Of a stretch of 64,000 nt of DNA, positions 1 through 75 are shown one piece after another. The notes below the pieces were generated by a model. That model was not told where the DNA came from. It ran no database searches and saw only the letters and a program-made list of their open reading frames with translations. The translations under genes were made by a program, and so were the position numbers. Source of the stretch: Escherichia coli (GTDB lineage: Bacteria; Pseudomonadota; Gammaproteobacteria; Enterobacterales; Enterobacteriaceae). The stretch is from the NCBI RefSeq assembly GCF_003334255.1, contig NZ_QOWU01000010.1; one strand, written 5' to 3'. How positions within the stretch are numbered: position 1 is the first letter of the stretch; every line of letters starts with the position of its first letter.

Positions 1-75
1 CGCTGAAAGGTGCACGTCCGGTTCGGGGAGGAGAGGCAGGGAAATAGTCCGACTACGCCCTGCCTCTTACTCTAC
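1..75 (+). mobile_element. Group II intron, extreme 3' end only (3' half of domain V, domain VI, 3' splice site). The rest lies upstream of the window.
   Basis: nt 5-24 GAAAGGUGCACGUCCGGUUC matches the GNRA loop plus 3' strand of canonical domain V (compare ...GAAAGUCGCACGUACGGUUC of yeast ai5gamma). nt 28-72 form a 14-bp helix (GAGGAGAGGCAGGG / CCCUGCCUCU-UA-CUC) with one bulged A at nt 69, 7 nt before a ...CUAC end at nt 75. The IS transposase frame is closed upstream (TAG 45-47) and resumes at nt 76. Confidence 0.7.

Follow-up and report, generated by a model that had tools for sequence, protein, structure and literature searches.

Group II introns close with domains V and VI. Domain V is a hairpin of ~34 nt with an AGC triad, a 2-nt bulge, and a GNRA tetraloop, and domain VI is a helix with a bulged A located 7-8 nt from the 3′ splice site; the intron ends in AY at the 3′ side and begins with GUGYG at the 5′ side. 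LtrA, the protein of the Ll.LtrB intron, has domains for DNA binding and for endonuclease activity. RmInt1 of Sinorhizobium meliloti (class D) is an intron with an RT/maturase that lacks the endonuclease (En) domain, and its natural homing site is found inside ISRm2011-2. The intron E.c.I4 inserts at specific positions in the transposase genes of IS629, IS911, ISEc16, and ISEc31 (PMC3522654). One published copy, E.c.I4-2b of Escherichia coli E24377A, occupies positions 4848623-4850893 of NC_009801 (supplement of PMC3522654). E.c.I4 and S.f.I1, which are 99% identical to each other, are listed as class A ORFs, and class A and class D are both among the classes without an En domain (Toro and Martinez-Abarca, PMC3552965).

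The window analyzed here is a stretch of E. coli DNA of 64,000 nt (contig NZ_QOWU01000010.1). Its first 75 nt read CGCTGAAAGGTGCACGTCCGGTTCGGGGAGGAGAGGCAGGGAAATAGTCCGACTACGCCCTGCCTCTTACTCTAC, and they are almost certainly the 3′-terminal 75 nt of the class A group II intron E.c.I4, in a full-length copy located in the sense orientation within the orfB gene of an IS629 element. This mobile intron is already known and very common, and nothing about the present copy, or the homing site it occupies, is out of the ordinary. We assigned sequences to E.c.I4 at >95% nucleotide identity to the named intron. The name and class rest on PMC3522654, its supplement, and PMC3552965; the class A assignment is taken from the last of these, and the domain content of the RT described below fits it. 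The reference intron used for comparison (locus L001) is 2,270 nt long, starts with GTGTG, ends with CTAC, and is 99.8% identical to E.c.I4-2b over its whole length. No difference separates window nt 1-590 from L001 5001-5590, the first 77 nt of the window match the E.c.I4-2b region at 100%, and E.c.I4-2b ends at the same nucleotides as the intron in the window. We found nothing that contradicts the identification as E.c.I4. An earlier note on this DNA, made from the letters alone, had stated that group II introns have been reported in IS629- and IS911-type elements, and PMC3522654 confirms this.

A scan of window nt 1-3000 against all Rfam families returned a match to RF00029 (Intron_gpII) at nt 1-75 on the + strand, with 37.9 bits and an e-value of 3.5e-5, as the earlier note had anticipated. 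The match spans model positions 13-77 of 77, with the end of the model falling on nt 75. It is flagged as 5′-cut, and the RF00029 gathering score of 40 applies to a complete match. The alignment also bears out the reading of nt 5-24 (GAAAGGTGCACGTCCGGTTC) as the tetraloop and 3′ strand of domain V, placing the GAAA tetraloop and that strand at these positions. Domain V begins 10 nt before window nt 1, and these 10 nt hold the catalytic AGC triad. With the 12 missing nt restored, the uncut D5-D6 region (L001 4989-5075) scores 64.9 bits against RF00029 (E 1e-11) and has an RNA fold z of -6.45. The full domain V is GAGCCGGAUGCGCUGAAAGGUGCACGUCCGGUUC (L001 4991-5024; the same sequence is present in contig CYUC01000007.1, described below).

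In the domain VI stem, nt 27-41 pair with nt 58-73, and a single bulged A is found at nt 69. Nucleotides 25-75 fold at -26.7 kcal/mol (z = -4.75), and none of 200 shuffled sequences folded as well. The helix, the bulged A, and its distance of 7 nt from the CTAC end at nt 75 had all been picked out by eye, and the fold agrees with each of them, the A being the 7th nt from the 3′ end; only the size of the helix needs a trivial correction, from 14 bp at nt 28-72 to 15 bp at nt 27-73. From its position, the bulged A (nt 69) is presumed to be the branch point. The intron 3′ end, CUAC in the RNA, has the terminal AY expected of group II introns. The intron-end signal at nt 1-75 is more than chance. 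The first 120 nt of the window, which span the intron/exon junction, are found at 100% identity in other genomes, and they are matched at ≥80% coverage in 1,314 of 5,426 complete E. coli genomes. A D5/D6 remnant of 75 nt at the edge of a window can thus be read correctly by eye. The features of the locus are collected in Table 1.

Table 1. Positions, in window coordinates, of the intron 3′ end, the interrupted IS629, and the adjoining ydhS fragment.
Feature	Position	Strand	Evidence
Domain V, nt 11-34 of 34, of E.c.I4	1..24	+	RF00029 alignment; window 1-590 identical to L001 5001-5590
Domain V, last 4 nt of 5′ strand (CGCT)	1-4		
Domain V, GAAA tetraloop	5-8		
Domain V, 3′ strand	9-24		
GG linker (2 nt), domain V to VI	25..26	+	Rfam alignment, RNA fold
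Domain VI, 15-bp stem and 4-bp apical stem	27..73	+	RNA fold, Rfam alignment
Intron 3′ terminal AC; 3′ splice site between nt 75 and 76	74..75	+	Intron-less IS629 junction; published E.c.I4-2b end
3′ exon, 3′ 515 nt of IS629 (IS3 family)	76..590	+	Pfam, NCBIfam, RefSeq annotation in L001, IS end compared with the 1,310-bp L004 element
ydhS 5′ fragment, codons 1-162 of 534, cut by IS right end	591..1077	-	160/162 aa identical to the YdhS N-terminus reconstructed from L004

The sequence that follows the intron is the 3′ exon of the host element. The C-terminal part of orfB occupies nt 78-545 and is closed by a stop codon at 546-548, and the right terminal inverted repeat ends with ...CCCGGGGCGGTTCA at nt 590. 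The translation of nt 78-545 contains Pfam rve/rve_3/rve_2 domains and matches NCBIfam transpos_IS3 with 177.5 bits over profile positions 228-369 of 369. The matching 3′ exon in L001 is labeled "IS3-like element IS629 family transposase" by RefSeq. An IS3-family OrfB frame does resume at nt 76, as the earlier note had claimed, and the TAG at nt 45-47, which had been said to block the frame upstream, lies in the same frame as the downstream OrfB. The intron splits a Val codon (G|TC) between its first and second base, in the motif DFTY-V-STW. Of the features of the IS629 host, the DDE transposase OrfB and the right inverted repeat are in the window, and the left inverted repeat is in contig CYUC01000007.1.

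For the spliced form of the gene, we joined the 150 nt before GTGTG in L001 to the 150 nt after CTAC. The joined sequence keeps an open OrfB frame across the junction, and the ligated IS629 exons are predicted to read ...ACTTACGTCAGCAC... at this point. Real genomes contain the ligated junction, ...ACTTACG|TCAGCAC..., at 100% identity, and the spliced junction sequence is found at ≥80% coverage in 3,093 genomes. Since the intron-less junction is present in real genomes, the 75 nt are not ordinary IS sequence. A second example of the empty site is an intron-less IS629-type element of 1,310 bp in ydhS of E. coli O157:H7 N8B7-2 (L004 2204-3513), which is flanked by the target duplication AAC/AAC.

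These empty sites bear directly on the reading in which the 75 nt are ordinary IS629-family sequence that resembles domains V and VI by chance. Its single formal point is that 37.9 bits is below the RF00029 gathering score of 40, but the uncut region scores well above that value. Intron-less IS629 passes directly from ...ACTTACG to TCAGCAC..., and in E24377A, where the IS3-family host is a different one, the same 75 nt form the end of a 2,270-nt element that encodes an RT. Chance resemblance is extremely improbable and, on sequence comparison, is refuted by the empty sites together with the E24377A copy. A BLASTN of the intron and the IS against the whole window gave no second copy of either the intron or IS629. 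An ORF of 502 aa at window 56921-58429 has the length of ltrA and was considered as a further intron copy; the BLASTN of the intron matched only window nt 1-595, so this ORF is not a nucleotide-level E.c.I4 copy.

The part of the intron upstream of the window is found in contig CYUC01000007.1 (GCA_001299315.1; 130 kb). This contig (locus L005) was matched through a unique ORF that reads through from YdhS into the IS, and window position x corresponds to L005 11078-x. The contig runs on past window nt 1, and thus the window edge is an arbitrary cut and not a contig end. The sequence upstream of nt 1 gives a gap-free alignment to the whole 2,270-nt reference intron, from which the contig copy differs by three substitutions (intron nt 66, 398, and 700). 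The 5′ end is GTGTG, directly after ...GATTTTACTTACG. GTGTG also directly follows ...ACTTACG in L001 and L006, and it is the 5′ end of the E24377A copy (L003). The RT ORF in the contig is intact. It contains the YADD motif and is identical to the reference ltrA at 501 of 502 residues, the difference being V10A, which is the effect of one of the three substitutions. This exact allele is common and is found at 100% identity in other genomes, e.g., in ST131 EC958. The expectation that an upstream extension would uncover the rest of an intron was borne out by the contig, with a 5′ GTGTG, a length of 2,270 nt, and an RT/maturase ORF between domain I-III sequence and domain V.

In L001 and L002, loci of two genomes that carry this intron/exon junction, the annotated order is a 5′ fragment of an IS629-family transposase with a frameshift pseudoknot, ~670 nt without annotation, ltrA, and a 3′ fragment of an IS3-family transposase. 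The ltrA product is annotated as a "group II intron reverse transcriptase/maturase" of 502 aa. It contains the Pfam domains RVT_1 (E 1.4e-34) and GIIM (E 1.3e-10), and it scores 341 bits against NCBIfam TIGR04416 (group_II_RT_mat), for which the equivalog cut-off is 300. Pfam and NCBIfam searches detected no endonuclease (HNH) domain after the maturase, and RT residues 422-502 had no match in them. The closest solved structures are LtrA (5g2x, E 2.2e-52) and the GsI-IIC RT. The ORF ends 3 nt before the start of the RF00029 D5-D6 match. The Rfam D1-D4 models gave no match to the 5′ domains of the intron (L001 2806-3476), either at the gathering score or at E ≤ 10. RF00029 recognizes D5/D6 alone, so that in automated RNA annotation such introns are visible only by their last ~87 nt. 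All intron copies are >99% identical and carry no covariation for the structure of domains I-IV.

The RF00029 match, the upstream intron with its RT, and the empty sites all support the proposal that a retrohomed group II intron lies in the sense orientation inside an IS629-type orfB. Neither of the two observations that the earlier note had named as contrary to its proposal was made. Uninterrupted IS629 copies lack the 75 nt and have the ligated junction ACTTACG|TCAGCAC instead, and the RT ORF, the 5′ GUGYG, and the RF00029 match are all present.

The flanks of the IS are mismatched. At the right end (nt 590), the IS adjoins ydhS after codon 162 of 534; the gene is labeled "ydhS: FAD-NAD(P)-binding protein" in matching genomes. 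The truncated ydhS ORF reads into the IS as far as nt 430 (window 430-1077, minus strand), and this ORF is unique to this insertion. At the left end (L005 14067), the IS joins the neighboring DNA 26 nt before an IS66-family tnpA. Beyond it are tnpB, tnpC, ISEc45, a resolvase, and a Tn3-family transposase (L005 14067-20648). These 6.6 kb are plasmid-like, with 95% coverage and 96.7% identity on 99.8-kb E. coli plasmids. The earlier picture of an intron within an IS within ydhS thus holds for the right side, but on the left the IS end in the contig adjoins an IS66-family element and not the rest of ydhS. A 3-bp target duplication is not present at the window locus, where the contig has GAT on the left vs. 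CCG on the right. Compared with the L001 reference, the 5′ half of the IS has seven differences in its last 106 nt, whereas the 3′ half has none in 515 nt. We did not find the junction of the IS629 left end and IS66 as one piece in any of the 5,426 complete genomes, which gave only multi-piece matches.

The missing target duplication argues for a recombinant or mis-assembled element and not against the identity of the host as IS629. The mismatched flanks indicate either a recombinant IS, formed from two IS629(::intron) copies through integration or inversion, or a draft short-read chimera through the 3.6-kb repeat. A rival reading is that the 75 nt are a dead 3′ remnant, with the full-length upstream intron coming from another IS629::E.c.I4 copy that the assembler joined to it. 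The mismatch between ydhS and the IS66/ISEc45/Tn3 side, the GAT and CCG ends, the uneven divergence of the two IS halves, and the lack of an unbroken left junction in complete genomes would all fit such a remnant. In addition, the contig comes from a draft short-read WGS assembly that crosses the 3.6-kb repeat, so that the upstream 2.2 kb could come from another copy, and truncated E.c.I4 copies do exist, e.g., K-12 ykfC. However, the contig crosses the intron in one continuous piece with no gaps. The fragments that are known, ykfC among them, have kept the 5′ part and not the 3′ part, and an isolated 3′ end joined precisely to its exon has the look of an intact copy. We therefore consider a remnant unlikely, and even then the 75 nt would remain E.c.I4 at its homing site.

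It is possible, though we put it forward only tentatively, that the IS629::E.c.I4 tandem arose by genuine recombination and joins the chromosome, at ydhS, to DNA of plasmid origin with IS66, ISEc45, the resolvase, and the Tn3-family transposase. If so, the locus would exemplify how a 3.6-kb intron/IS tandem can act as the substrate for homologous recombination and for chromosomal integration or inversion. Recombination between intron/IS tandems has been proposed as a cost of the spread of introns into IS elements (Leclercq and Cordaux, PMC3522654). For the reading of draft genomes, the mismatched flanks are a reminder that such 3.6-kb tandems are hot spots of both recombination and mis-assembly.

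The ydhS gene looks like a recurrent target of IS629/IS1203. Eleven complete genomes join IS3-family sequence to this part of ydhS, and they include O157:H7, O111:H8, O55:H7, and NCTC9699. The IS copy in N8B7-2 is intron-less, has its AAC duplication, and lies in the same orientation 26 nt from the window breakpoint; it is thus an independent insertion. Farther along the window, tandem tRNA-Val(GAC) genes are located at 1616-1692 and 1697-1773 on the minus strand, 4 nt apart, the same position as the two tRNA-Val genes beside ydhR in L004. Rfam places HPnc0260, a Helicobacter antisense RNA family, at window 1492-1654 on the + strand with 112 bits (gathering score 59). This match covers sequence upstream of ydhR and the strand antisense to tRNA-Val, and a second, partial match at 1696-1732 is on the antisense of the second tRNA. 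The HPnc0260 match probably stems from the part of the model that is complementary to tRNA rather than from a real homolog. The enterobacterial sRNA STnc550 has a strong, full-length Rfam match at window 10365-10755 on the + strand (396.5 bits), which starts 1 nt after the end coordinate of a 341-aa minus-strand ORF at 9339-10364.

E.c.I4 is widespread. The full-length intron, at ≥80% coverage, is found in 1,874 of the 5,426 complete E. coli genomes (~35%), with up to 20 intron places per genome, and on 1,519 PLSDB plasmids at the same coverage. Plasmids with any intron match are mostly from Escherichia, followed by Klebsiella, Salmonella, Enterobacter, Yersinia, Citrobacter, and Shigella, and most of them are predicted to be conjugative. 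Some copies in other E. coli genomes (matches H71, H96, and H97) are themselves split by IS421 (IS4 family) or IS5, resulting in an IS within an intron within an IS.

The label for window nt 1-75 should be the 3′ end of E.c.I4, a group II intron; the neighboring "IS3 family transposase, partial" is the 3′ exon of an IS629 that the intron interrupts and should be annotated as such. Beyond correct annotation, the copy matters little. RefSeq annotates the two halves of the IS transposase as separate "incomplete" pseudogenes (L001 2065-2804 and 5069-5548; L003 505-1222 and 3484-3995). In L001 and L003, the intron is given no feature except ltrA, and the relationship between the exons is invisible. 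In automated annotation, the intron can silently split IS transposase genes into "pseudogene" fragments, even though splicing would in principle restore the mRNA.

The locus has a sense orientation, precise boundaries, an intact ribozyme 3′ end, an intact RT ORF, and a frame-restoring junction. From the general biology of group II introns, the intron would be co-transcribed with the IS629 orfAB mRNA. Maturase-assisted splicing, with branching at the bulged A of nt 69, would then restore the transposase mRNA. The excised lariat-RT particle may reverse-splice into other IS3-family orfB targets, which it would recognize by base pairing. Because the RT has no endonuclease domain, cDNA synthesis presumably depends on host DNA ends at replication forks as primers, the mode established for other En-less introns such as RmInt1. 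In the literature searched, we did not find a paper that tests the splicing or mobility of E.c.I4, or a test of fork-primed cDNA synthesis for class A.

Part of the putative target pairing can be proposed from the sequence. A candidate EBS1, CGUAAG at intron nt 331-336, is complementary at 6/6 positions to exon -6 to -1 (CTTACG) and sits in the 9-nt loop of a 10-bp hairpin. The A directly 5′ of it could pair with the invariant T at +1. The IS629 and E24377A hosts share this T, as well as A, T, C, and A at -3, -4, -6, and -7, respectively. The candidate pairs at only 4/6 positions of the IS911-type site in E24377A, and a search of the ribozyme part did not find a convincing EBS2; the pairing model is provisional for these reasons. 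Two sequences were rejected as EBS2: TAAGTA (intron nt 219), the sole further 6-mer complement in the ribozyme part, which overlaps IBS1, and AATCAGC (intron nt 662), which is at the start of the ORF.

Among solved proteins, the best match to the RT is LtrA of Ll.LtrB (Lactococcus lactis, PDB 5g2x), with a best-scoring stretch that covers only query residues 18-235. Both come from mobile group II introns and have RT and maturase domains, but in the E.c.I4 protein, which has 502 aa against the 599 aa of LtrA, RVT_1 and GIIM are the only domains detected. RmInt1 is like E.c.I4 in outline, as it is En-less and homes into an insertion sequence. It differs in the class of its IEP and in its ribozyme and is not known to be close to E.c.I4 in sequence. 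A much closer relative is found in K-12, where ykfC of the CP4-6 region (L007 1501-3264) is a copy of E.c.I4 with 99.7% identity across intron nt 1-1764 and with a fragment of an IS3-family transposase in front of it. However, it is truncated within the RT ORF, with IS5 ~150 nt downstream, and it lacks domains V and VI, the part that the window carries. The K-12 annotation of ykfC as a "reverse transcriptase domain-containing protein" pseudogene describes a truncated E.c.I4.

The described intron that the locus matches is E.c.I4 itself, so named in the Zimmerly database (S.f.I1 in Shigella flexneri). The host type is the same, an IS3-family orfB with the insertion at the codon after D-x-T-Y, and so is the RT and maturase protein without an En domain. 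The copy in contig CYUC01000007.1 differs from E.c.I4-2b at five positions, and in nothing of substance. The host in E24377A is a different, IS911-type IS3-family element, in which the intron lies at the equivalent position (...GDVTYI|W...). The homing position after D-F/V-T-Y is thus common to IS629, in the window, L001, and L006, and to the IS911-type host.
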